Positions 4,928 through 17,561 of a DNA stretch of 64,000 bases are shown piece after piece. Origin of the DNA: Gemmatimonadota bacterium (GTDB lineage: Bacteria; Gemmatimonadota; Gemmatimonadetes; Palauibacterales; Palauibacteraceae); NCBI GenBank assembly GCA_022820995.1, contig JAJEEM010000044.1, positions 2,027 through 66,026 on the forward strand. Direction: 5' to 3'. A program made the translations under genes and the position numbers. Every line of letters begins with the position of its first letter. Position 1 is the first letter of the stretch. Below the pieces are notes generated by a model that did no database searches, was not told where the DNA came from, and was given only the letters and a program-made list of their open reading frames with translations.

Positions 4928-6856
4928 TCAGAATCCGAGCGACGCGGTCTCCCGCCTCACGTCCCCCGCGGCAGTCATCACCCCGGTCTCCGGGTCGCGC
5001 CAGGTCACCGTGGGAGCGCCGGCCCGCCAGTTCCAGAGCCCCCATGAGCGCACGTCGTGGCCCATGGCGCGCAGCGCTTCGGCCGTCTCCGCCGGGATCC
5101 GGTCCTCCATGTAGAGGACGGCGGGATTCCGGTTCACCTCGCTGCCGGTAGCCGGGAAGTTGTAGCTGCCGAAACGGGGCTGGTCCACGGCCTGCTCGGG
5201 GGACATCCCCCACACCACGACGTTGAGGAAGACCTGCAGGAGACACTGCATCTGCTGGTCGCCACCCGGGGTGGAGAGCCCCATGAACGGTTCGCCATCC
5301 CTCATCACGAGAAGGGGCGAATTGGTGTTCCGCGGGCGCTTTCCGGGCGCCATCACATTGGCAAGGTCCGGGTCCAGGTTGAACTGGCCCATGCGGTTGC
5401 CCAGCCCGAATCCCCATCCCGGAATCATGGGGGTGAACGTGTGGCCGTCGCTCTCGGTGACGGAAAACACGTTGCCCTCGGCGTCCATCACATTCAGCGA
5501 AGACGTGTCGAACGAGGGAGCCTCCGAATCCGCCGCGTCGGCCCCCGGGAGGTCCTGCACAGCGCCTGCGGGCCGACCTCCCGGCGCCACGAAGCTCGCG
5601 GGCGCGCCCTCCGCCACCGCCGCCATACGTACCGGATCGCCCCACGGAGGCATGTCCCGGAACGCGCGATTCTCGTCGATGAGCCCGATGCGCTCGCGCG
5701 CGTACGCCTTCCCGTACAATCCCTCCGGAGCGGGCGCGAAATCCGGATCCCCGACGTACCTGTGGGCGTCCGCCATCGCGAGGTCGATCACCTGTGAGAC
5801 GAGGTGGATGTACTCCGGCGTGTTGTAGCCGAGGGCGCGCAGGTCGTAGTTCTCCAGCATGTTGAGCATCAGGATGATGCGCGGCCCCTGACTCCATCCG
5901 TCGCCGGCGTGGACGTCGTAGCCGTTGAAGCGGGTCCCCAGCGGCTCCTCCCACCGACTCTCGTATCCCGCCATGTCCTCGTACCGGACGATGCCGTCGT
6001 GCTCCCGGAAGAAGCGGTCCACGGCGCGCGCGGGGTCCCCCCGGTAGAAGGCGTCCCGCGCCGCGTGGATCCCGTCGGAGCGGCTTCCCCCCGCCGCCAG
6101 CGCCTGCCGCTCGGCCTCGATCATGTAGCGGATGAGCCGTCCCAGGTCGGCGTTCACCATGACATCGCCCAGCCGCTGCTCGCCGATTCCGTTGGGAAAC
6201 CAGAAATCGCGATTGTAGGGAAAGGCGAGGATCTCCTCCGTCTGATCCTCGATCATCCATTTCTGCATCTTGTAGAGGTGATAGCCCTCCTCGGCGATGC
6301 GCAGCGTGGGCTGCGCGGCCTCGCCGAAGCTGAGGGTGCCGAAGCGGTCGAGAGCGGCGAGCCAGACATCCACGTCCGCGGGAATCAGCGCGTTGTTGAT
6401 GGGCGACTTGCCGTGTTCGAGGAAATGGTCGAGGGTGGCGAGCGCGGGGGAGGTTCCCGCCCCGACCCGGGTGATCACGCGGTCCTCGGCCGCGCTGTAC
6501 ACGATGAGCGGCGCGACCCCGGTCCATCCCGCGTAGTCCATCTTGAGCGCCTTGAGCGCCATCCCCGCGGTCACCCCGGCGTCGAAGGCGTTGCCGCCGG
6601 CCCGGAGCACGTCGTAACCGGCCTGCGTGGCGAGATAGTGCCCGGAGGAGATCACCCCGTGCGTGCCCATGATCCGCGGCCGCATCGCCTCGACGTTGTC
6701 GGCGTCGTGGACGGCGCCGTGACTCCGGAACGGAGCGATGGTGGCGAGGACGCCTTCCTCGGCGGCTGCGGACTCCTCCGGGGCGTCCATCCCCGGACCG
6801 CACGACGCGACGAGTGCCAGAGCTGCGACCGCAACCACACGTCCGAAAGGCTTCAT
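4928..6856 (-). CDS. ggt: Gamma-glutamyltranspeptidase, lipoprotein
   Basis: 642 aa with the lipobox LVASC signal and a GGT-family layout including the conserved T-nucleophile region. It starts 4 nt after the qhpE stop on the same strand. Confidence 0.8.
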   Translation of the reverse strand: MKPFGRVVAVAALALVASCGPGMDAPEESAAAEEGVLATIAPFRSHGAVHDADNVEAMRPRIMGTHGVISSGHYLATQAGYDVLRAGGNAFDAGVTAGMALKALKMDYAGWTGVAPLIVYSAAEDRVITRVGAGTSPALATLDHFLEHGKSPINNALIPADVDVWLAALDRFGTLSFGEAAQPTLRIAEEGYHLYKMQKWMIEDQTEEILAFPYNRDFWFPNGIGEQRLGDVMVNADLGRLIRYMIEAERQALAAGGSRSDGIHAARDAFYRGDPARAVDRFFREHDGIVRYEDMAGYESRWEEPLGTRFNGYDVHAGDGWSQGPRIILMLNMLENYDLRALGYNTPEYIHLVSQVIDLAMADAHRYVGDPDFAPAPEGLYGKAYARERIGLIDENRAFRDMPPWGDPVRMAAVAEGAPASFVAPGGRPAGAVQDLPGADAADSEAPSFDTSSLNVMDAEGNVFSVTESDGHTFTPMIPGWGFGLGNRMGQFNLDPDLANVMAPGKRPRNTNSPLLVMRDGEPFMGLSTPGGDQQMQCLLQVFLNVVVWGMSPEQAVDQPRFGSYNFPATGSEVNRNPAVLYMEDRIPAETAEALRAMGHDVRSWGLWNWRAGAPTVTWRDPETGVMTAAGDVRRETASLGF

Positions 6857-6860
6857 CGCG

Positions 6861-7613
6861 TCATCCTACGGGCAGCGCCGCCAGTGCGGCCAGCGCGGCG
6901 GCCCGGCCGCGCGCGTCCGGGAAGAGTTCGAACGCGAGGGCGACGATGCCGGTCGCGTTCGCCACGGCGAAGCTGATGCCGTTGAGGTTGCGCGTCGGCG
7001 GGACGCCCGGGATCGGCCGAGGGTAGCCCGACGCATACAGCACGCGCCGCCCATCGCGGCGCCCGATGCGGACGCGGTGCCGCGGCAGATCCCAGTCGAG
7101 GCACACGCCGAGTGCGCCGGGGAGGCTGCCCGGGAACTGACGCTGTCCTTCGTGCGAATAGGCCGCGATGACGAGCGTTCCGGCCCGCGCGGCGCACTCG
7201 ACCGCGGGCTGCAGCTGTTCGATGCGGCTCTGCCGCGGCGTCCCGAGGCTCAGATTGGCCAGCCGGCAGCCGCGCTCCCCGGCCCAGTCGATGGCCTTCG
7301 CCAGCGTCCGGGCGCTCGTCGCAAGTTCGTCGTGAAAGACGCGGGCGACGTGGACCCGCGAGCCCGGCGCCTTCTCCTGGATGGCGGCGGTGACGGCGGT
7401 CCCGTGGCCCAGCCGGTCCGTCAGGTCGTCGTGCTCGCGGCCGTCGGGAGTGAACGCGATGCCGCCCGCCAGGAGCCCCAGGTGCGGATGGCCCGGATGC
7501 GCCCCGCTGTCGATGACCGCGATCGAGACGCCCCGGCCGGTCCGGCTCCAAAGCGGTTCCGCGCGCATCCGCACGGAGGGCGCCACGGGCGGTCCCGGCA
7601 CCGCCGCCGTCAC
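6861..7613 (-). CDS. qhpE: Small subtilisin-like (S8) serine protease, QhpE-like leader peptidase
   Basis: 250 aa with the D/H/S triad motifs VIDSG, HGTAV and GISFA. It overlaps the upstream ABC gene stop with ATGA. Confidence 0.75.
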   Translation of the reverse strand: MTAAVPGPPVAPSVRMRAEPLWSRTGRGVSIAVIDSGAHPGHPHLGLLAGGIAFTPDGREHDDLTDRLGHGTAVTAAIQEKAPGSRVHVARVFHDELATSARTLAKAIDWAGERGCRLANLSLGTPRQSRIEQLQPAVECAARAGTLVIAAYSHEGQRQFPGSLPGALGVCLDWDLPRHRVRIGRRDGRRVLYASGYPRPIPGVPPTRNLNGISFAVANATGIVALAFELFPDARGRAAALAALAALPVG

Positions 7614-9328
7614 CCGGCGAACAGGGCGCGGAACGCACCCGGTCGACCGTCGAGCTCCGCCGGCCGGCCATCCTGCGCGACCCGCCCGTCGCGGAGCACC
7701 ACGACGCGCTCCGCCCGTCGCGCGAGCTCCGGGCGATGCGTGATGAGCACCGTGGTCCGCCCCCGCATCAGCGCCGCATAGCCCTCGAGCACCTGCGCCT
7801 CCGAGGCCGGGTCCAGCGCCCCTGTCGCCTCGTCGAACACGAGCACGGCCGGATCGGCCAGGAAGGCCCGCGCCACGGCCACGCGCTGCCGCTCGCCGGC
7901 GGAGAGCTGCCGGCCCCGCTCTCCGACGACCGTCCCGGCCCCCTCCGGAAGCGACGCGAGCAGCCCATCGAGCGCGGCGGCCGCGAGCGCCCCGACGACC
8001 TCCGGATCCGTGGCGTCGGGCCTGGCGTACCGCACGTTCTCGGCGATCGATGCGTGGAAGATGAACGGATCCTGCTCCACCACGGCGACGTTCCGGCGCA
8101 CGTCGGCGAGCGCGAGCGCAGTCAGGTCCCGCCCGTCCAGAAGCACCCTCCCGCCATCCGGGTCGAGCTGGCGCGAGAGCAGATCCGCGACCGTCGACTT
8201 CCCGCTCCCGCTCGCGCCGACGAGCGCGACGACCTGCCCGGCGGGCACCTCCAGCGACACGCCTTCCAGCACCTCGCCTCCGCGCCCGAAGCCGAGCCTC
8301 ACGTCGTCGAAAACCAGGGCCCCCGCCGCCCTCGCCAGCCGCTCCGCCCCCTCCGCCTCCACGACCTCCAACGGCGTGTCGAAGAGTTCATGGACGCGGA
8401 CGAGCGACGCCCGCGCGCTCGCGAGGTTCGCGTACAGCCCCATCAGCGCCTGCACGGGGAAGAGGAGCCGCATCTGGTACGCCATGAACGCGACGAACGT
8501 CCCCAGCGTCGTCGCCTCCGTGATGACCCGGTAGCCCCCGTACAGGAAGACGGCGGCCGTCCCCGTCTGCAGGAGGACCCCCGGCAGGCCTCCCGCCAGG
8601 TACGTGAACCAGCGCATCGACATCAGGGCCCGCACGAACCGGTCGTTGTGGCGCCCGAACCGCGCCGCCTCCCGCTCCTGCGCGTTGGAGGCCACCACCG
8701 TCCGCACCCCCTGCAGCGTCTCGATGAGGAAGCTCCCGATGTCCGCGCTCCGCTCCCGCAGTTGCGTCACGCGCCCCTCGAGCCGGTTCCGGTACCTCAC
8801 CAGCGCCCAGAGGCTCGGCGGCAGCGCGATGAGACCCGCCAGGAAGAGCCGCGCATCGAGATGGATGAGCATCCCCACGGTCCCGATGAGGAAGAGCACG
8901 TTCCCGAACAGCCCGAGCGCCGCGTCCGCCGTCACCCGCTGGATCTCGCCGATGTCGGCGTTGATGCGCGAGACGATGTCCCCGAACGGCGTCCGTGCGT
9001 AGAACCGCGGCGAGAGCCTCTGCAGGTGGCGGTAGAGCGCCAGCCGCATGTCGAAGAGGATGCCGGCCGACACCCGCGTGTACCGCATCCCGCTCGCGAC
9101 GTTCGTCCCGAAGGCGAGAATCGTGATCCCGATGAAAAGGCCGACGATCCTGAGCAGGAGAGGGAAGTCGCCCCCCAGGATCGCGTCGTCGATCATCGCT
9201 TTCGACAGGTAGGGGAGCGCCAGCCCGAGGGCGGTCCCGGCCGTGGAAAGGAGGACCACGGGAAGCAAGGCCCCCGCGTACGGTCGGACGTAGGCGAGGG
9301 CTCGGCGAAGGTGCGGGTCCCGGATCAC
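7610..9328 (-). CDS. qhpF: ABC exporter, fused TMD-NBD (QhpF-like)
   Basis: 572 aa. The N-terminal half has six predicted TM segments. It has Walker A GASGSGKST, signature LSAGERQRVAVARA and Walker B VLVFDEAT. Confidence 0.8.
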   Translation of the reverse strand: MIRDPHLRRALAYVRPYAGALLPVVLLSTAGTALGLALPYLSKAMIDDAILGGDFPLLLRIVGLFIGITILAFGTNVASGMRYTRVSAGILFDMRLALYRHLQRLSPRFYARTPFGDIVSRINADIGEIQRVTADAALGLFGNVLFLIGTVGMLIHLDARLFLAGLIALPPSLWALVRYRNRLEGRVTQLRERSADIGSFLIETLQGVRTVVASNAQEREAARFGRHNDRFVRALMSMRWFTYLAGGLPGVLLQTGTAAVFLYGGYRVITEATTLGTFVAFMAYQMRLLFPVQALMGLYANLASARASLVRVHELFDTPLEVVEAEGAERLARAAGALVFDDVRLGFGRGGEVLEGVSLEVPAGQVVALVGASGSGKSTVADLLSRQLDPDGGRVLLDGRDLTALALADVRRNVAVVEQDPFIFHASIAENVRYARPDATDPEVVGALAAAALDGLLASLPEGAGTVVGERGRQLSAGERQRVAVARAFLADPAVLVFDEATGALDPASEAQVLEGYAALMRGRTTVLITHRPELARRAERVVVLRDGRVAQDGRPAELDGRPGAFRALFAG

Positions 9329-9379
9329 CCGGACCTCACGAAGTCGAACGCCGGATCGAAACCGGATCGCGGGCCGGGA

Positions 9380-10465
9380 TCAGCCCGGATCGGGCACCAC
9401 GACGACGCTCGTCATGTCCGCGTCCAGCGTGACGGTGCGCAGGAACTCGAACGTCTCCTCGTCGTAGATGTCGATCGTGCTCCCGGCATTGTAGATATAG
9501 AGCTTCGTGCCGTCGGCGCTCGGCATCAACGCCATCCGCGGCCGCCCCGCGAAGGTGACGCGCCCGGCGACCCGCCGGTCCCGAAGATCGAACTTCCACA
9601 TTTCGTAATGCCCGATCTCGGACTTGAGTCCGTATCCCTTCGTCCCGTCCGGAGAGAGCGCGAACGACACCCCCTCATCGGGGCCGATGGGGTGGAACTC
9701 CACGTCCTGCCCGGCGAGGTCGACGGTCGCGATGCCCATGAGACGGCGGTTCTGGAGCGGATCCGTCATGCGGAAGAGGCCCGTGTATACGCCGTCCTCC
9801 TCCTGATAGGGACTCTGGCCGAAGGGAAGCCTCATCTGCCCCAGGCCGGGCTCGAACGGCTCGGAGATCTCCCAGCGGTCGACCTCCTCGTACGTCTCGG
9901 AATCGATCACGATGAGATCCTCCGCAAACATGTAGAGGAGGTCGCCGTCGGGGGAAAAGCGGAAGTTGGCGCCCCGGCGCAGCGTCTCGCCGGGCCACGG
10001 GATCGTGTCCGTGACCTCGTACGTCGTGAGGTCGTAGCGGAGGATGGTCGGCTCGTCGATCCGGTACCGGTCCGCAAGCTTCGTGCGGCTCTGCACGTTC
10101 ATCGCCATCCATTCCTGGCTCGGATGGACCTGAAAGGAACGGATCCACGTCCGGGTGGCGCCCTCGCTCAACGTGAACTCGCCGATGGACTCCTTGGAGG
10201 GGAGCGAGATGATCTCGATCGTCTCGAAGAACGGATCCATCACGTAAAGCCGCGACCGGTCCTCGGAAACTTCGAGACGAAGGGAGATCGGACGCTTGAC
10301 CGGGATCCGGTCCACGACTTCCTCGGTGGCCTCGTCCCAGACGAGGACTTCATTGCTGTAGTTGCCCATGTACCAGTGGGCGTTCCGGCCGTTCCCCTGC
10401 GCCTCCAGCGTCCGCGCCCCACCGAGGGCGCAGGCGAAGGCGACCACTGCGACGATGCACCGCAT
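9380..10465 (-). CDS. qhpB: Beta-propeller protein, QHNDH beta subunit-like
   Basis: 361 aa with a signal peptide and repeated SPDG/ADGTKLY blade motifs. The real start is internal to a 757-aa ORF whose N-terminal extension is R/G/P junk. It begins 8 nt after the qhpC stop. Confidence 0.7.
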   Translation of the reverse strand: MRCIVAVVAFACALGGARTLEAQGNGRNAHWYMGNYSNEVLVWDEATEEVVDRIPVKRPISLRLEVSEDRSRLYVMDPFFETIEIISLPSKESIGEFTLSEGATRTWIRSFQVHPSQEWMAMNVQSRTKLADRYRIDEPTILRYDLTTYEVTDTIPWPGETLRRGANFRFSPDGDLLYMFAEDLIVIDSETYEEVDRWEISEPFEPGLGQMRLPFGQSPYQEEDGVYTGLFRMTDPLQNRRLMGIATVDLAGQDVEFHPIGPDEGVSFALSPDGTKGYGLKSEIGHYEMWKFDLRDRRVAGRVTFAGRPRMALMPSADGTKLYIYNAGSTIDIYDEETFEFLRTVTLDADMTSVVVVPDPG

Positions 10466-10473
10466 CCGCGGGA

Positions 10474-10806
10474 TCACGGGAAGACGAGGTCCAGCTTCCG
10501 CCAGTCCTTCTGCGCCGATGCGCACTGGGACGTCCAGTCCGGCGAGTGGTTGAGCTGGTCGGGCACGTGCGCCGGCCAGAAGCAGGCGAGGTGGCAGTCG
10601 AACAGGTCGCGCTCCACCGGCTGGCACAGGCCCGCGGTCCCGCCGCTCGAGTCGACCTCCCAGCCGGGCGCGAAGACGAGCGAGCACCCGAGCGGGATGT
10701 GGGGCCCCTCCGGCCGGCTCTCGAGCCCCACGACGTCCATCTCCTCGCGGGCCACCTGCGCCTCGATGCGGCCGGCCTTCTGGTTGATCGGTTTCAGCTG
10801 TTTCAC
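10474..10806 (-). CDS. qhpC: QHNDH gamma subunit precursor (Cys-rich peptide carrying CTQ and thioether cross-links)
   Basis: 110 aa, GTG start after the SD GAGGGGGAA. The Cys/Glu/Asp/Trp register is C41-E50, C61-D67, C71, C75-W77 and C75-D83. This matches the Paracoccus gamma subunit spacing (Cys7-Glu16, Cys27-Asp33, Cys37-Trp43 CTQ, Cys41-Asp49). It ends ...DWRKLDLVFP. Confidence 0.8.
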   Translation of the reverse strand: MKQLKPINQKAGRIEAQVAREEMDVVGLESRPEGPHIPLGCSLVFAPGWEVDSSGGTAGLCQPVERDLFDCHLACFWPAHVPDQLNHSPDWTSQCASAQKDWRKLDLVFP

Positions 10807-10854
10807 GGCTTCCCCCTCGCATGCGAAGGGCGACCGGGCCCGCGCCCGGCCGCG

Positions 10855-12294
10855 TCAATGGTCGAAGCGGGACAGGTACTCCGGGTTCCGCTCCGACAAC
10901 TCCCCGTAGATCTCCAGACACGTATGCGTCCACGTCCGCACCCAGGTGCAGAAGTGCAGGTTGGGCGCGGTCGTCTCGCCGTGTCGCGTGTGCGCTTCGT
11001 GATAGCAGCCGCCCGAGCAGATCGGGCGGGCCCAGCATGTATGGCAGTCCGTCTTGTTCTTGACGTGGTGGCTCTCGAGGAAATCCTTCTGCCGCTCCCG
11101 GTCGATGCCCTCCGCGACGCTGCCGAAGCTGTGGTCGTTCGAGTACGCGAAGCGGTGGCAGAGCGACACGTCGCCCCCCGTCGTCACACCCATCAGCCCG
11201 AGCCCGGCCCCGCACGGATAGGCCTTGCTCACGCCCTTGTGGATCTCCTCCAGCGTGTCCTTCACGTTCGAGAAGCCGTGGTGCCGGTTCTCGACCGCGT
11301 GATCCAGCCAGTCGCGCGCCAACTCCCCGAACTGGCGCAGCATGCGGTCGTACCCCTCGTCCTCGATCTCGTAGTCGCGCCCGGAGGAGGTCGTGACCGG
11401 GGCGAAGCCCACCTCCCAGAACCCCATCTCCTCCGTCAGGTGCTCGTAGATCCGGTGGATGTCGAGGTTTTCGCGGGTGAGCGTCACGCGCGCGCCGATC
11501 GGGCGGGACTTGTGACGCCTGAGAAGTTCCCTGATCCGCGGCTTGACGGTCTCGTAGGAGCCCTTGCCGCTGTGGAAGACCCGCATGCGGTCCTGCATCT
11601 CCTTCGGTCCGTCGATGGAGACGGTCACGCCGATCTCGTTGTCCGCCAGCCACTCGATGATGTCGGGGCGGAGGAGCGTCGCGTTCGTCGTGAGACTGAA
11701 CTCGATCCGCTTCCCCTCCTCCTCGGCGCGCTTGCGGGCGTAGGCCACCGTGTCCTGGAGGACGGGGAAGTTGAGCAGCGTCTCACCGCCGAAGAAGGTG
11801 AGGTGCGCGACCTCGAGGGGGCCCGACTCCTTCAGGAGGAACTCGACGCTCTCCCGGGCCGTCTCGTCCCCCATGAACTTCGGGTCGTCCGTGCATGTCG
11901 TGTCGACGATCTTGTCCTCGCCGTACTCGTAGCAGTACGTGCACGCGAGATTGCACTTGTTCGTGACGTTGAGGACCATCGTCGTGAGCGGGAAGCCGTC
12001 CGGCGGCAGATCGTTCACGACCTGTTCGGCGGGAGCCCCCGCCTCCCCGATGGCTCGGATCTGCTGGAGCTCCAGCAACCCGTCGTGGACGCGGTCGACG
12101 GGGTAGCGGTCGGAAAGAGAGTTCACGACCTCGCCCGGCGCGCGGGGACCGTAGCTCAGCAGATCGAGGATCGCCGACGACGCTGCATCGATGCGGAAGA
12201 TGCCGGCCGAGGGGACGAGGTAGAGGAACCGCTCGCCTGCCGCCTCGAATGCATGGAATTCACGCAGCGCCAGTTGGCCGACGGGCTTGATCAC
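10855..12294 (-). CDS. qhpD: Radical SAM / SPASM-domain maturase (QhpD-like thioether-forming enzyme)
   Basis: About 479 aa with CNLACTYC (CxxxCxxC) and a C-terminal Cys-rich SPASM region (CGAGLG...CHRF, CHTCWARPICSGGCYHEA). The GTG start overlaps the qhpA stop (GTGA). Confidence 0.85.
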   Translation of the reverse strand: MIKPVGQLALREFHAFEAAGERFLYLVPSAGIFRIDAASSAILDLLSYGPRAPGEVVNSLSDRYPVDRVHDGLLELQQIRAIGEAGAPAEQVVNDLPPDGFPLTTMVLNVTNKCNLACTYCYEYGEDKIVDTTCTDDPKFMGDETARESVEFLLKESGPLEVAHLTFFGGETLLNFPVLQDTVAYARKRAEEEGKRIEFSLTTNATLLRPDIIEWLADNEIGVTVSIDGPKEMQDRMRVFHSGKGSYETVKPRIRELLRRHKSRPIGARVTLTRENLDIHRIYEHLTEEMGFWEVGFAPVTTSSGRDYEIEDEGYDRMLRQFGELARDWLDHAVENRHHGFSNVKDTLEEIHKGVSKAYPCGAGLGLMGVTTGGDVSLCHRFAYSNDHSFGSVAEGIDRERQKDFLESHHVKNKTDCHTCWARPICSGGCYHEAHTRHGETTAPNLHFCTWVRTWTHTCLEIYGELSERNPEYLSRFDH

Positions 12295-14063
12295 GGAACC
12301 AGCCTCCCCGTGGGAACCCCCTGCCAGGGGTCGAACTTGAGGTAGAGCGGCACCGTCACGATGAGGTGCGCCCGCGCGCGGAGACTCCGGGAAGCACCCG
12401 CATCGGCGTCGGAGCCCGCATAGGTCGCGACGATCCACACGTCGCCGACGTTGTTCCGGCTGCCCGTGCGGTCGGTATTCGGGCCATCGATCGCGGGGGT
12501 GAAGACGCCGTCGGACCCGAGCGCCCCGACGTATTGGATGTCGTCGTCGTCGAAGGTCGCCGCGTACTCCTCCATGCTCCAGGTCACCGGCACGCGCCCG
12601 AGCCGGAGATCGTCCTCCGTGTTCGGTTCTCCGTCGGGGCCGTCGTCCCACCCGATCGCGTCGTAGGGCTGATATCCCTTGGGAAAGGCCCCGCCGCCGA
12701 TCCGGGCCATGCCCGCGCGCGGCGTCACCTCGAGGCGGTCCACGCCATCGTGCACCTGAATCGCGCCCCGAAGGCTCGCGCCGGCGAGGAAGAGGTCGCG
12801 CTCCCCGACCGGTGCGTCATCGTCGACGGAAAGGCGGATCGTAATCCGGTCCCCATCGCCGCCCGTGGCGGACTCGACGCGGACACCGCGACCGAAGTCG
12901 AAGTCCGCCGGGTCGGGGTTCGCCGGCAGGTTCGCGCCGTGGACCCGGAGTTCGGCGGACGACGCGACGCGGATCGCCCGCGGGTGGACGCCCGATACGA
13001 CGGGGCCGCCGCTCACGCGGGTCAGCTTCACGTCGGGGCCGAACTCGTCGTACGCGCCCCTGAACCAACGGCCGGTCATCTCCTGCCAGTCGCGGTCGAC
13101 GGTCATGACCTCGCGCAACTCGTCCTGACCGCCCGGATTCGAACGCCCGCGCCACTGGTAGCCGGTATAGACGATGGACTGCCCGCTCCGGCTCTCCTGC
13201 TCCCCCGACTCCGCGTATGCGTACGTGATCGCGGTCCGGAATTCATCCGGGGCGTCGCCGGCGGTGATCTCCACCGTTCCGAAGACCTGCCCCTTCCCGG
13301 GCTCGAACCCGGCCAGCGCCCATGTGCCGGCGAGACGCGGCGTCCGCATCGAGGCCGACCAGGCGGACCACTCCGGCGTCTCGAGCGGGAAGGCTTCGGA
13401 GAGGTGGTCGATCGCCTCGTCCACGGGCTGGGGACCATCGCCCCCGCCCTGGAAGGCCTGGAAGTCGACGAGCGGGTAGAGACCGCGGTGCGTCGCCATG
13501 AGGAGTTCCCACTCCTCGCGCGTGCGTCGCTGGGTGATGACGCGGCCCATGCTGTGGCACTGGATGCAGGTGTTCTCGACGTCGCGGTCCGCCTCGTAAA
13601 CGTGCTCGATGAGGCGTCGCTCGACCTCGAAGCGGCCGGGCTCGAGTTCCTCCGGAGCGAGCCCCTGCCGGTTGGAGAGATAGCGCACGACCTCGCGCGC
13701 CTCATCGGGACCGAGGGAGACGTCGTTGAGCGCGACCATCCGGCGGACCGACGTCTGCCACCCTTCCGGCGTCTTCCGCTCGTAGGAGATCCGCGTCATC
13801 CGCCCCTCGTCATCGCGCTCGTGACAGCGCTGACAGCGGACGATGATGACCTGGCTGTCGATCGGATAACCCTCGTCGTCGGCCTGCCCCGGGGCTCCCG
13901 CGGTGCCGGCGAACCGAGCCGAAGCGAGGTCGACGGCCGGAGTCGAGGGCATGTCCGGGACCGGAGGCAGAGCGCGCGCGCCGAGGAAAACCAGCGCGCC
14001 GACGGCCATTGCGGCCGCCGGCAGTCGGTCAAGTGCCCGTCGCGTAGTCGCTTTGCGTCTCAT
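12291..14063 (-). CDS. qhpA: Diheme cytochrome c, QHNDH alpha subunit-like
   Basis: About 590 aa. The ATG at 14063 follows a GGAGGA SD. It has a signal peptide and two CxxCH heme motifs (CQRCH, CIQCH) followed by a large beta-rich C-terminal region. Confidence 0.8.
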   Translation of the reverse strand: MRRKATTRRALDRLPAAAMAVGALVFLGARALPPVPDMPSTPAVDLASARFAGTAGAPGQADDEGYPIDSQVIIVRCQRCHERDDEGRMTRISYERKTPEGWQTSVRRMVALNDVSLGPDEAREVVRYLSNRQGLAPEELEPGRFEVERRLIEHVYEADRDVENTCIQCHSMGRVITQRRTREEWELLMATHRGLYPLVDFQAFQGGGDGPQPVDEAIDHLSEAFPLETPEWSAWSASMRTPRLAGTWALAGFEPGKGQVFGTVEITAGDAPDEFRTAITYAYAESGEQESRSGQSIVYTGYQWRGRSNPGGQDELREVMTVDRDWQEMTGRWFRGAYDEFGPDVKLTRVSGGPVVSGVHPRAIRVASSAELRVHGANLPANPDPADFDFGRGVRVESATGGDGDRITIRLSVDDDAPVGERDLFLAGASLRGAIQVHDGVDRLEVTPRAGMARIGGGAFPKGYQPYDAIGWDDGPDGEPNTEDDLRLGRVPVTWSMEEYAATFDDDDIQYVGALGSDGVFTPAIDGPNTDRTGSRNNVGDVWIVATYAGSDADAGASRSLRARAHLIVTVPLYLKFDPWQGVPTGRLVP

Positions 14064-14166
14064 CCATCCTCCGTTCCGAACCGGTGAATTGTGCGCGAAA
14101 CGGAGCGGATGCGCCACCCCGAACGGGGCCTTCTCCACGCCTCGCGCCCACGCGCCCGCCCATCCG

Positions 14167-15708
14167 TCACGGGTCGGTCAGCTCGAGGAAGCCCGCGCCC
14201 ACCGCGAACGAGAGGGCGGCCAGGAAGTCCGGGAGCGGCACCGCCGTCCCGCGCCGGTTGTACGCCTCGAACAGGTCGGGCACCTGATCGGAGTCCGGCG
14301 CGATCTCCGTGAGCCGGCGGAGGTCGACGTTGCGTACGTAGCGCGCGCCGTCCGGGAGTCGGTCGGAGATAAGGCGCGCCTCGAGGGCGATCCGGTCCTC
14401 GACGACGGCGGGCCGTCGCACGCTCGAGAGTCGCGCCGCCGGGCGCAGGTGCACGGCCGGCAGCGAACGGATCGTCTCCCACGCCGTCCGCACTTCCGGG
14501 CGCCCCAGGAAGGCGTCGACCCGGCGTTCCGCGAGCGGGCGGTCTCCGGGTTCCGACACCGCGGGCGCTCCGGGCGCGGAGGCGGGCCCCGGGAGGTCCG
14601 CGCCCGCTTCCCGCGCCGCAGCCAGGCGAACCTCCCAGAACGCGTGGTCGTTCGCGGCGGCGGCCTGCTCGAAAAAGGGGACGGAGAGCACCCGGTAGGT
14701 CCGGTACACATCGCGTTCCCGGTCGTCGTACAACTCGCAGGCCGGCCCGACCATCGTCTCATCGTCCAGCGCCGTGTGAGTGACGATCGCGGCGAGCCAG
14801 GCGGAGGCGAGCGCCTTCTTGACCCCGTACGAGGAGAGGGGGTCGATGAAGGAGCCGGCGTCGCCGACGAGGAGCAGGCCCGGCCGGCCGTGCGAGGCTG
14901 CGCCGTAGAGCGACGCGGGGCAGGCGCGCACCGGCCCGTCCAGCCGTCCGTCGGCGAGGCGCTCGGCGAGCCGCGCCGCCTTGGCGAGTTCGGCGCGCCA
15001 CATGCCGTCGAGGCCCTTCTCGCGCGCCAGGTGCGTGCGGCGCGGGTCGACCATCGCCGTAACGCAGCGGGTACGCGGCGATGTCGGCACCGACCAGGCC
15101 CACCCGTCCGCGTAGCTCTCGATGAGCGTACAGCCGGGGTCCGGCGGAGCGTGCCCGCGGCCCGCGGTCCAGCGGCCGACGAGCGCGAGCGTGGCGATCC
15201 CGCGTTCGCGCGCCCGCAGCCCGCGCCGGGCGAACACCCCGGCCCGCCCGGAGGCGTCGAGCACCCAGCGACCCCGGTAGCGCGCGGTCGAGGTGGCGAC
15301 GCGCCAGCCATCGGGCTCCTCGGCCGTCTCGATGACCGGTCCGTCCGTCACGAGGCGCACGCCCGCCTTGCGGGCCACTCCGTGGAAGACGGCTTCAAGC
15401 GCCGCCCGATCCGCATGGAAACCATGCTCGGGCGCCCCGAACCGTTCTTCACGGCGGGGCATCCCGGCCCACCAGACGGTGTTGCCCTCGTTCGGCACGA
15501 GGCCCGCCGCGTCCAGGGCTTCCAGCGCTCCCACGCGTTCGAGGAGCTTCCGCGCCGAGCCGGGGATCGACTCGGCGAGCCATTTCGCCGGCGGCGCCGG
15601 CCGCGTGATCAGCGCTACGTCATGCCCGCGCCGCGCCAGCGACGCGGCGGCGGCGCAGCCGGCCGGCCCCCCGCCGACAACAACGACGTCGTACGGCGTA
15701 CCTGTCAG
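14167..15708 (-). CDS. qhpG: FAD-dependent monooxygenase (QhpG-like, tryptophan-halogenase/hydroxylase fold)
   Basis: The GGGPAG dinucleotide-binding motif (YDVVVVGGGPAG) lies upstream of the first in-frame GTG (15534). There is no ATG/GTG/TTG between the upstream in-frame TAA (15715-15717) and that motif. A CTG at 15708 gives a canonical Rossmann N-terminus. Confidence 0.65.
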   Translation of the reverse strand: MTGTPYDVVVVGGGPAGCAAAASLARRGHDVALITRPAPPAKWLAESIPGSARKLLERVGALEALDAAGLVPNEGNTVWWAGMPRREERFGAPEHGFHADRAALEAVFHGVARKAGVRLVTDGPVIETAEEPDGWRVATSTARYRGRWVLDASGRAGVFARRGLRARERGIATLALVGRWTAGRGHAPPDPGCTLIESYADGWAWSVPTSPRTRCVTAMVDPRRTHLAREKGLDGMWRAELAKAARLAERLADGRLDGPVRACPASLYGAASHGRPGLLLVGDAGSFIDPLSSYGVKKALASAWLAAIVTHTALDDETMVGPACELYDDRERDVYRTYRVLSVPFFEQAAAANDHAFWEVRLAAAREAGADLPGPASAPGAPAVSEPGDRPLAERRVDAFLGRPEVRTAWETIRSLPAVHLRPAARLSSVRRPAVVEDRIALEARLISDRLPDGARYVRNVDLRRLTEIAPDSDQVPDLFEAYNRRGTAVPLPDFLAALSFAVGAGFLELTDP

Positions 15709-15714
15709 GTCGGC

Positions 15715-16398
15715 TTACCGCTCCCGCCGCGAGAACTGCAGCAGCAGGTCGCCGCCGCTCGGCCCATCCGTCGCGAAGCAGTAGAAGCGCCCGTCACCCC
15801 CCGTCCCGCGCAGATTCTCGAGGCTGCAGCCCCGCGACCCGTGGGCCTCGTTCCACGAGGTCGGGTTCTGTCCGCCACCCACGCGGTCGTGGTGCCCGAC
15901 GAGCGCGCTCCCCTCACCGCTCGACGTCCAGTTGCCGCACGTCGTGTCCCCGTCGGCGTCCGACGCCATGCCGTTCATCAGGGACCCGGTGAGGATGTCG
16001 TGCTGGTTCGGCTGGTCGCCCCGCCCGTTCACCTCGCTGCCGGTCTCCGTGAGGATCGTGGCCTTCGTGAGGTTCGGGCCGTTGCTGTGCAGGTGCTCGA
16101 CATCCCGGGCGATCATCGTGCCCGCGTGGTTGTACCACGGCCCGTCTCCGATGCGGTCGCGCGCGTTCACGCCGCCCGCGCCCGTCGTGCTCAGGTAGGC
16201 CCGCCACATGCGGTCGGGCAGCCCCGCCGCCTCGGCCAGCGCCTCGCAGTAGGCGTCCGCGCCCTCGAGACCGCCGAGATCCGCGCCGTCCCCCGGATTC
16301 GAACTGGTGATGAAGAAGCTGATGTTCTCGTCCTGCGCTGCCGCCCCGCCCGCGCCGAATGCGAACAGGATGGCCATGAAGCCAATCGTGCGTCTCAT
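15715..16398 (-). CDS. Secreted hypothetical protein with a Cys-containing lectin-like C-terminal region
   Basis: 227 aa with a signal peptide and the C-terminal stretch ...CGNWTSS...SWNEAHGSRGC...GRFYCFA. Its stop lies directly before qhpG and in the same frame. Confidence 0.45.
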   Translation of the reverse strand: MRRTIGFMAILFAFGAGGAAAQDENISFFITSSNPGDGADLGGLEGADAYCEALAEAAGLPDRMWRAYLSTTGAGGVNARDRIGDGPWYNHAGTMIARDVEHLHSNGPNLTKATILTETGSEVNGRGDQPNQHDILTGSLMNGMASDADGDTTCGNWTSSGEGSALVGHHDRVGGGQNPTSWNEAHGSRGCSLENLRGTGGDGRFYCFATDGPSGGDLLLQFSRRER

Positions 16399-16431
16399 CT
16401 CCGACTCCCGTGCTGGTTGTTGCGAAATCTG

Positions 16432-17457
16432 CTAACGCCGGATGTACTTTCTCATCTGACGGGGTCCGACCTCGGCCCCGTAGAGGTTGCCGTGCGCGTC
16501 GACGGCGATTCCCTCCGCGCCGCTCGTGCCGGAGGCGTCCTGATTGGGTTCCGGATCCGGGATGAAGGCCGTCACCCAGCCGGTCGCCGCGTCGCCGATG
16601 TAGATGCCGCGGAGCCACCCCTTGTTGCGGCGCGCGTTCGACTCCGAGTCCGTCGAGTAGAGGACATCGCCCTCGTCGATGAACAGTCCGCTCGGACGTC
16701 CGAACTGGTGCCAGGTTTCGAGGTGGTTCCCCTCCTGATCGAAGATCTGGACGCGGCTGTTCCCGCGATCGCCGACGAAGAGACGTCCCTGCGAGTCCAT
16801 CGCGAGCGCGTGCGGGTCGCGGAACTCGCCGTTCGCCGTGCCCATGCGTCCCCATTCCATGAGGAAGGAGCCATCGGGCGCGAACTTCACGATGCGGTTG
16901 TTGCCGCCCGCGTCGTGCCCGTCCGCCACGAAGATGCTGCCGTCGGGCGCGACGAGGATGTCCGACGGCTTGTTGAAGTGGTTCGGGCCGTCGCCGGCGA
17001 CGCCTTTCTCGCCCAGCGTCATCAGGACCTCACCCTCAGGGCTGAACTTGTAGACCACGTGTCCCCAGCCCTCCGGCACCGGCGCGTATCCCACGGCATC
17101 GGCCACCCATACGCTGCCGTCCTCCTCGACGAACATCCCGTGCGGCCACGCGATCAGTCCCGAACCGAAACTCCGCACGAGGTTCCCCTCGGTATCGAAG
17201 AGCAGGATCGGGTCGACGTCGCTCTCGACGCACAGGTTCGCGCCGCACCGCTCGCCCACCCAGATGTGTTCGCCGTCCGGGGCCGGGTAGACGGCGCTGG
17301 TCGCGCCCCACGCGCGTCCGTCGGGAAGCTGGCCCCAGCCGTCCATCGCCCTGTACGGGTTCGGCGCCGTCAACTGCGCCGCGAGCGCGCCGGCGCCCGA
17401 AATGGCCGCCGCAAGCGCGAGTGTCGCGATGAATCCGATTCGCCTTGTGCCTTGCAT
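16432..17457 (-). CDS. Secreted NHL-repeat beta-propeller protein (PAL-like)
   Basis: 341 aa with a signal peptide and repeated NHL-like blades (FVADGHDAGGNNRIVKF, FVGDRGNSRVQIFD). The real start is internal to a 685-aa ORF. Confidence 0.65.
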   Translation of the reverse strand: MQGTRRIGFIATLALAAAISGAGALAAQLTAPNPYRAMDGWGQLPDGRAWGATSAVYPAPDGEHIWVGERCGANLCVESDVDPILLFDTEGNLVRSFGSGLIAWPHGMFVEEDGSVWVADAVGYAPVPEGWGHVVYKFSPEGEVLMTLGEKGVAGDGPNHFNKPSDILVAPDGSIFVADGHDAGGNNRIVKFAPDGSFLMEWGRMGTANGEFRDPHALAMDSQGRLFVGDRGNSRVQIFDQEGNHLETWHQFGRPSGLFIDEGDVLYSTDSESNARRNKGWLRGIYIGDAATGWVTAFIPDPEPNQDASGTSGAEGIAVDAHGNLYGAEVGPRQMRKYIRR

Positions 17458-17561
17458 CCGTCCTCCTGTCCTTCCGATCCGCGCCATCCGTGTCGGGCCG
17501 AAGACGATGGGACGCCAACGGCAAAGCGGGCAAGCGGCGCAGCGGGGCGGGGTGCGGCGGA

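Follow-up and report, generated by a model that had tools for sequence, protein, structure and literature searches.

Background

The maturation mechanism of quinohemoprotein amine dehydrogenase (QHNDH) has been established in Paracoccus and Pseudomonas (PMC7876137), and we apply it here by orthology. According to published work, Oozeki et al. included, the qhp operon is known from more than 1300 species and the order and strand of its genes vary; a review citing Nakai 2014 likewise gives qhp a wide distribution, Gram-positives included (PMC8172795). Our subject is a 64-kb stretch of DNA (the window, meaning this whole stretch) from Candidatus Palauibacter, an uncultured marine member of the order Palauibacterales, Gemmatimonadota. 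Seven adjacent open reading frames (ORFs) of the window, all intact and all on the minus strand between 6861 and 15708, constitute the qhp gene set. In our opinion it is very probable, judging from their sequences, that this region is a functional and complete qhp cluster for a periplasmic QHNDH and its own maturation and export machinery. An earlier note on this DNA had read the seven minus-strand genes as a full QHNDH set in a non-proteobacterial genome; the NCBIfam, Pfam and PDB matches agree with the former statement and the identity of the host with the latter. Read along the minus strand, the genes are:

qhpG, 14167-15708, minus strand: FAD-dependent peptidyl-tryptophan dihydroxylase, 513 amino acids (aa), CTG start
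qhpA, 12291-14063, minus strand: alpha subunit, a four-domain di-haem cytochrome c with a signal-like N-terminus, 590 aa
qhpD, 10855-12294, minus strand: radical S-adenosylmethionine (SAM)/SPASM thioether-forming maturase, 479 aa, GTG start
qhpC, 10474-10806, minus strand: gamma subunit precursor, 110 aa (leader about 34 aa, mature part about 76 aa)
qhpB, 9380-10465, minus strand: divergent beta subunit, a 7-bladed beta-propeller with a signal-like N-terminus, 361 aa
qhpF, 7610-9328, minus strand: ABC exporter with fused transmembrane and nucleotide-binding domains and no peptidase domain, 572 aa
qhpE, 6861-7613, minus strand: small subtilisin-like leader peptidase, 250 aa, GTG start

That the N-termini of alpha and beta resemble signal peptides is a judgement by eye. 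G+C content is uniform across the window, at about 70%, and the genes are tightly coupled, with two 4-nt overlaps and one 8-nt gap. The GTGA overlap of qhpA and qhpD that the earlier note described (the qhpD GTG start overlaps the qhpA stop) and its gap of 8 nt between qhpC and qhpB are both present. Two other details need correction: the qhpF/qhpE overlap, given as ATGA, is GTGA (the qhpE GTG start lies over the qhpF stop), and position 15717, given as the end of the cluster, belongs to the stop codon with which the upstream ORF ends, the qhpG start being at 15708.

Evidence for a complete qhp cluster

The identification draws on family matches for all seven proteins, on the conservation of the residues that form the cross-links and the cysteine tryptophylquinone (CTQ) cofactor, on the fold of the beta subunit and on the collinearity of the seven genes. 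Families were assigned with NCBIfam models and their curated cut-offs, plus Pfam. These are the profile searches that the earlier note had proposed, and with them alpha, gamma and QhpD score over their cut-offs, QhpE and QhpG just under and beta far under, so that three of the seven proteins pass. The alpha subunit scores 470.1 bits against TIGR03908 (QH_alpha; cut-off 274, E 7.7e-141), has the full set of four Pfam domains (PF09098, PF14930, PF09099, PF09100), matches 1jmx_A with an E-value of 2.9e-77, and contains two CxxCH motifs and no further Cys. QhpD scores 565.6 bits against TIGR03906 (cut-off 453, E 7.3e-170) and matches Radical_SAM and Fer4_12 in Pfam, and its translation shows a CNLACTYC motif followed by a Cys-rich C-terminal SPASM region. 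For gamma the score is 130.6 bits against NF037958 (QH_gamma; cut-off 50, E 1.8e-38), PF08992 matches too, and the solved gamma chains 1jmx_G and 1jju_C are found with E-values of 3e-22 and 8e-22.

Alignment of gamma with these two chains indicates that all the cross-link residues are kept, as the pairs Cys41/Glu50, Cys61/Asp67 and Cys75/Asp83, and so is the CTQ pair Cys71/Trp77. The precursor bears a leader and has no signal peptide. The leader length of about 34 residues is predicted from the alignment offset to the solved chains, and its motif MKxLKPxNxKA is common to the gamma subunits of the window, Leisingera and Novosphingobium.

Among the remaining maturation proteins, QhpE is a Pfam Peptidase_S8 protein with the motifs VIDSG, GHGT and GISFA (Asp, His, Ser) visible in its translation. 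QhpF contains ABC_membrane (residues 24-291) and ABC_tran (354-502) and no peptidase domain. Its NCBIfam matches are generic and MsbA-like, and a QhpF-specific model is absent from the libraries searched; its orthology thus rests on a conserved position, between qhpB and qhpE in 40 loci, and on the 31-47% identity that it shares with its counterparts in Paracoccus, Leisingera and Novosphingobium. QhpG matches the QhpG structure 7ctq in the PDB with an E-value of 3.7e-13, and it has secondary matches to GoxB (E 6e-27) and LodB (E 1.5e-23).

The 361-aa protein is, on the evidence of profiles and of a modelled fold, a divergent QHNDH beta subunit orthologous to QhpB. A Pfam search of it returned no match, and searching the PDB with the single sequence gave only an archaeal YVTN propeller and no QHNDH beta chain. 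A clade profile built from 27 members does match 1jmx_B (4.7e-9) and 1jju_B (1.1e-8), over the full length. The AlphaFold2 model, made from 35 homologues, has a predicted local distance difference test (pLDDT) value of 87.2, and its top two Foldseek matches are 1jju_B (E 5.5e-21, template modeling (TM) score 0.74/0.78) and 1jmx_B, with TM scores in the range 0.73-0.78; the next propeller in the ranking reaches 0.54. The placement of qhpB between qhpC and qhpF is conserved across related loci.

If the established mechanism holds for these orthologues, maturation would proceed as follows. QhpD would bind the 110-aa QhpC precursor via its leader and install three thioethers, Cys41-Glu50, Cys61-Asp67 and Cys75-Asp83, after which QhpG would dihydroxylate Trp77 in a (ternary) complex with QhpD. 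The leader would then be cut off by QhpE and the cross-linked peptide exported to the periplasm through QhpF. There it would assemble with the di-haem alpha subunit and the beta-propeller, both separately exported, and the Cys71-Trp77 cysteine tryptophylquinone would be completed. The finished enzyme is expected to convert primary amines to aldehydes and ammonia, with the two haems handing the electrons on to a soluble acceptor. What we say of its activity and substrate range, of the exact site of leader cleavage, and of co-transcription and regulation is inferred by analogy.

Conservation and gene order

The alpha homologues closest to that of the window, 85-97% identical, belong to Candidatus Palauibacter and already carry the NCBI name "quinohemoprotein amine dehydrogenase subunit alpha"; 2236 proteins match alpha at E<=1e-10. 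A scan in which each species was represented by one genome gave 49 related loci; its search patterns were taken from the window's own protein, and so it favours relatives and is no census. The loci stem from Palauibacter, Longimicrobiales, Gemmatimonadales, two Acidobacteriota metagenome-assembled genomes (MAGs) and one Bryobacterales MAG. Together with the window's own scaffold they form a set of 50, which was searched with the window proteins by tblastn.

The order G-A-D-C-B-F-E that the earlier note assigned agrees with our ORF assignments. It is found on a single strand in 40 of the 50 loci (Gemmatimonadota and the two Acidobacteriota MAGs), nine loci are cut by contig ends and are collinear as far as their sequence runs, and the Bryobacterales locus is the only one with a deviating order. 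The neighbourhood comparison which that note had suggested therefore gives a seven-gene block that is conserved across the phylum. We disagree with its further view that the order is non-canonical, and see nothing special in it. Besides these 40 loci, a plasmid of the alphaproteobacterium Leisingera caerulea (NZ_CP081079.1) has G-A-D-C-B-F-E too, and the literature calls the order variable. In this phylum the order is the rule, common and not unusual.

Weighing the alternatives

Several observations weigh against the identification of a complete and functional qhp cluster, and they should be considered together. QhpG reaches 226.9 bits against its best NCBIfam match, NF049967 (cut-off 240, E 4.2e-67), and QhpE 152.4 bits against NF049966 (cut-off 165, E 1.1e-44, profile positions 2-197 of 219), while beta reaches only 58.8 bits against TIGR03907 (QH_beta; cut-off 223, E 4.9e-16). 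The qhpG gene has no canonical start codon. A QhpR-like AraC regulator, sought by tblastn at E<=1e-3 with queries from the Paracoccus and Leisingera flanks, was found neither in the window nor in the 49 related loci, and the same is true of an aldehyde dehydrogenase homologue sought by tblastn. A promoter and terminator scan gave no signal above shuffled controls, and gamma has an extra, fifth Cys, to which we return below. On the other side, for QhpG and QhpE alike the qhp model is by far the top match despite the narrow miss of the cut-off (for QhpG the runner-up family, CmlS, has 108.9 bits), and an AraC-type QhpR is an accessory feature, outside the enzyme itself.

Some of these points could be taken to mean that the cluster is a decaying, non-functional remnant in which the qhpG start was lost, beta drifted and the regulator disappeared. 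The first ATG, GTG or TTG of qhpG, at 15534, indeed lies downstream of the FAD-binding GxGxxG motif, gene callers give a truncated 455-aa product at this locus, beta is under its family cut-off and no QhpR homologue was found. We consider decay very unlikely, as seven intact ORFs are present and as the arrangement, the CTG codon and the N-terminal 58 residues of QhpG, the last at the protein level, are conserved across many independent genomes. The CTG-start form is annotated by the NCBI pipeline in four RefSeq genomes, and beta has 626 homologues, 53 invariant columns in a 35-sequence alignment and a confidently predicted fold. It is hardly conceivable, to our mind, that the locus is instead a stand-alone cluster for a ribosomally synthesised and post-translationally modified peptide (RiPP), of ranthipeptide- or sactipeptide-like type, with the Cys-rich peptide as final secreted product. 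The architecture of radical SAM/SPASM enzyme, Cys-rich precursor, S8 protease and ABC exporter would fit such a cluster. QhpD gives matches to the models of PapB (E 1.8e-85) and of the SCIFF maturase, it is the known relative of the ranthipeptide maturases through which ranthipeptides were recognised (PMC7327761), and antiSMASH "ranthipeptide" gene clusters have been reported as a trait of Palauibacterales (PMC10469786). However, QhpD passes the QhpD equivalog cut-off (565.6 bits, cut-off 453) and stays under those of the PapB (287.1 of 340 bits), SCIFF (245.6 of 425) and RumMC (136.7 of 720) models, all of them outscored by the QhpD model; the precursor, an orthologue of QH_gamma, has all the CTQ and cross-link residues; and the alpha and beta genes lie in among the maturation genes and are conserved together with them in 40 loci. 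The earlier note had favoured an enzyme with a peptide-derived CTQ over a stand-alone RiPP and would have given up that view had the 590-aa and 361-aa proteins been unlike the alpha and beta subunits. Both resemble them, alpha at 470 bits and beta by profile and fold, and hence we retain a qhp cluster for QHNDH as our interpretation.

The start codon of qhpG

Because the first ATG/GTG/TTG falls after the GxGxxG motif, the CTG at 15708 is the only plausible start of qhpG. The ORF opens right behind the stop of a 227-aa ORF, and the CTG lies 6 nt past that stop. The CTG and the in-frame upstream stop are kept in 13 Palauibacter-clade loci (L001-L007, L010, L012, L013, L034, L046 and L049 of our set), where the CTG is usually preceded by GGGAG (in the window the junction is at 15706-15717). 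At the corresponding position, relatives further removed carry ATG or GTG. Four RefSeq proteins (WP_428278627.1, WP_420617533.1, WP_420464350.1, WP_423930746.1) are exactly the CTG-start translations, and the RefSeq forms of this kind measure 513-532 aa. The gene calls in ENA are shortened to 443-462 aa and have lost the Rossmann motif; the CTG start is the reason why callers of the Prodigal type truncate QhpG.

We also considered a readthrough of the stop that would fuse the 227-aa protein to QhpG, and rejected it. In L008, L009, L015 and L016 the reading frames of the two ORFs do not agree, the stop is TAA in some loci and TGA in others, and the 227-aa protein is secreted while QhpG is cytoplasmic. 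We likewise rejected a role of QhpG as a halogenase: the catalytic Lys (K76 of CndH) aligns to Asn, and the protein scores twice as many bits with the QhpG model. The likeness to flavin halogenases in pairwise search that we see here has been published for QhpG itself (PMC7876137).

Some further features of QhpG may be mentioned. In this clade the protein exceeds the 423 positions of the QhpG model by about 90 residues. It contains a Pro/Ala/Gly-rich insertion at residues ~360-440 (window ~14400-14650), the length of which varies between relatives; in L013 and L049 it is expanded by GADI(A/P) repeats, for totals of 527-532 aa. Publicly, the clade proteins are named "NAD(P)/FAD-dependent oxidoreductase" or "tryptophan 7-halogenase".

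The fifth cysteine of gamma

The additional residue of gamma is Cys95 (window 10522-10524, minus strand). Its motif, W-x3-C-x5-D-W, is present in 49 of the 49 related loci. Among family representatives clustered at 50% identity and covering the position, Cys is found in 59 of 74, including members just 33-47% identical, and the position is Ala in both crystallised QHNDHs (1jju_C and 1jmx_G). In 47 of 50 loci the only Cys of alpha are the four of its haem sites, and in 48 of 49 the mature beta is free of Cys, so that Cys95 has no disulfide partner in either of them.

A modified subtype of QHNDH could be imagined on this basis, in which Cys95 makes an extra link, for example a fourth Cys-Asp thioether made by QhpD to Asp101, or serves as a functional thiol. 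The conservation of the motif, the missing disulfide partner, the wide occurrence of the Cys in the family against the Ala of the two solved enzymes and the C-x5-D spacing, which equals that of the known Cys27-Asp33 thioether, speak in its favour. We nevertheless regard an extra link or functional thiol as improbable. Asp101 is conserved in enzymes with four Cys too and thus carries no specific signal; the AlphaFold2 model of gamma, itself of low confidence (pLDDT 48.8), has a helix at residues 92-100, in which positions i and i+6 would not be neighbours; the literature searched makes no mention of a fifth Cys; and it is simpler to assume a buried free thiol. It is similarly doubtful that the mature cofactor subunit would differ from that of the two crystallised enzymes, and we would give little credence to the broader proposition that the 5-Cys gamma defines a structurally distinct subtype, with Cys95 cross-linked or catalytic/redox-active. 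The 5-Cys form is the majority in the sequence space of the family; should the proposition be true, the textbook four-thioether CTQ subunit would be a minority form. The 5-Cys form is not confined to Gemmatimonadota; the gamma subunit encoded by a plasmid of Novosphingobium sp. RL4 has it as well. In our opinion the 5-Cys gamma is the sole lead with some novelty in the cluster.

Flanking genes and regulation

Two neighbours on the same strand, which we do not count among the core genes, are:

227-aa secreted protein, 15715-16398, minus strand: weak DUF1554 match (E 0.0055)
gamma-glutamyltransferase, 4928-6856, minus strand: PF01019 (E 4.3e-92)

All-against-all clustering of the flanking ORFs of the 50 loci yielded no gene conserved phylum-wide beyond the seven, only synteny specific to Palauibacter. 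The 227-aa ORF, for which NCBIfam gave no match, is the immediate upstream neighbour of qhpG only in loci of the Palauibacter clade. It is itself preceded, head to tail on the minus strand (15715-17460 and further upstream), by a gene for an NHL-repeat protein with a ScyF-like match and by a HupE/UreJ-type gene. This upstream synteny is restricted to the Palauibacter clade (L001 5108-8349) and has no evident link to amine oxidation. On the other side of the cluster, and on the same strand, the gamma-glutamyltransferase gene begins 4 nt beyond the qhpE stop; it encodes a lipoprotein-like N-terminus and is probably co-transcribed with qhpE. It is downstream of qhpE in some Palauibacter loci only, at a variable distance. 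One may speculate that the enzyme frees amines from gamma-glutamyl amides.

As the earlier note had stated, no AraC-type qhpR is present; tblastn detects no homologue in the whole window. There is no member of a helix-turn-helix or other regulator family within 10 kb of the cluster, and an Rfam scan of the entire 64-kb window produced zero matches.

Implications

The earlier note expected an uncharacterised instance of the system. This is correct as far as biochemistry is concerned, but the significance was overstated, since the system is widespread and alpha has already been named by NCBI. The cluster is a biochemically uncharacterised, ordinary member of a known, widespread and largely auto-annotated system. 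Its practical value is modest; it opens no new mechanism and answers no long-standing question.

Nevertheless, three points seem to us worth recording. Uncultured marine, sponge-associated Palauibacterales and most other sampled lineages of Gemmatimonadota carry a complete QHNDH system, and by analogy this would imply that primary amines supply them with carbon, nitrogen or energy. Further, gaps in annotation are exposed. Public annotation names the qhp clusters of this clade only in part, with beta, QhpG and QhpE under the cut-offs. Clade beta and QhpG go without their proper names and QhpG is truncated by the callers. Clade beta homologues appear as 'hypothetical protein' at NCBI or as 'DNA-binding beta-propeller fold protein YncE' at JGI, since their scores lie far under the TIGR03907 cut-off. 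Finally, the locus suggests some caution. In an ecogenomic study of Palauibacterales, antiSMASH "ranthipeptide" biosynthetic gene clusters (BGCs) distinguish the order, and the main text is without QHNDH (PMC10469786); the supplement of the same study has K08685 and PF08992 in 17 of 48 MAGs (PMC10469786). The reported "ranthipeptide BGC" may be the qhp locus, in line with the earlier note's expectation that a RiPP-mining tool would probably flag it, and such calls in Palauibacterales may thus point to an enzyme-maturation locus and not to a natural-product cluster.

Comparison with known systems

A radical SAM/SPASM enzyme that links Cys sulfur to the Cbeta or Cgamma of Asp and Glu in a leader-bearing peptide is shared with the ranthipeptide systems (PapB/freyrasin, SCIFF), in which, as in the window, a protease and an exporter are commonly nearby. 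The window differs from them by its predicted product, a quinone-bearing enzyme subunit, and by the presence of alpha, beta and QhpG genes. The CTQ oxidases LodA and GoxA, with LodB and GoxB, have the CTQ cofactor and a related flavoprotein in common with the window; however, they are single-polypeptide oxidases and involve no thioether-caged gamma, radical SAM enzyme, haems or exporter.

The qhp systems of Paracoccus denitrificans and Pseudomonas putida (1JJU, 1JMX; QhpG 7CTQ) comprise the same seven protein families as the window. They have the same gamma cross-link and CTQ residues, a four-domain di-haem alpha and a 7-bladed beta, and likewise a leader-bearing gamma without signal peptide and an ABC exporter without peptidase domain. 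The leader is about 34 aa in the window and 28 aa in these systems, and the fifth Cys of gamma and the roughly 90 aa by which QhpG exceeds the family model are further differences from them. With Paracoccus pantotrophus the identities are 33% for alpha, 38% for QhpD, 50% for mature gamma, 34% for QhpE and 31% for QhpF; beta is undetectable by tblastn and shows ~20% identity in structural alignment. The P. pantotrophus order is G on the opposite strand, A-D-C-B-E-F, and then an AraC regulator and an aldehyde dehydrogenase, both of which the window is without.

Leisingera caerulea NZ_CP081079.1 is identical to the window in gene order and strand, yet its proteins are of the Paracoccus type: QhpG with 369 bits and QhpE with 169 bits are both over their cut-offs, and gamma has 4 Cys. 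Unlike that of the window, its cluster comes with a divergent AraC regulator and, downstream, with an aldehyde dehydrogenase.

By sequence, the closest relative in the annotated collection, nearer than the Paracoccus type, is the cluster on the Novosphingobium sp. RL4 plasmid NZ_CP141945.1 (8749-17015). Identity to the window proteins is 63% for gamma, 50% for QhpD, 53% for QhpE, 47% for QhpF and 38% for alpha. In its gene order, A-D-C-B-(QhpG-like)-F-E, the flavoprotein gene follows B and precedes F; the cluster belongs to a proteobacterial host in which it is carried by a megaplasmid. Like the window it has a 5-Cys gamma, and its beta also lies under the TIGR03907 cut-off, at 63 bits.

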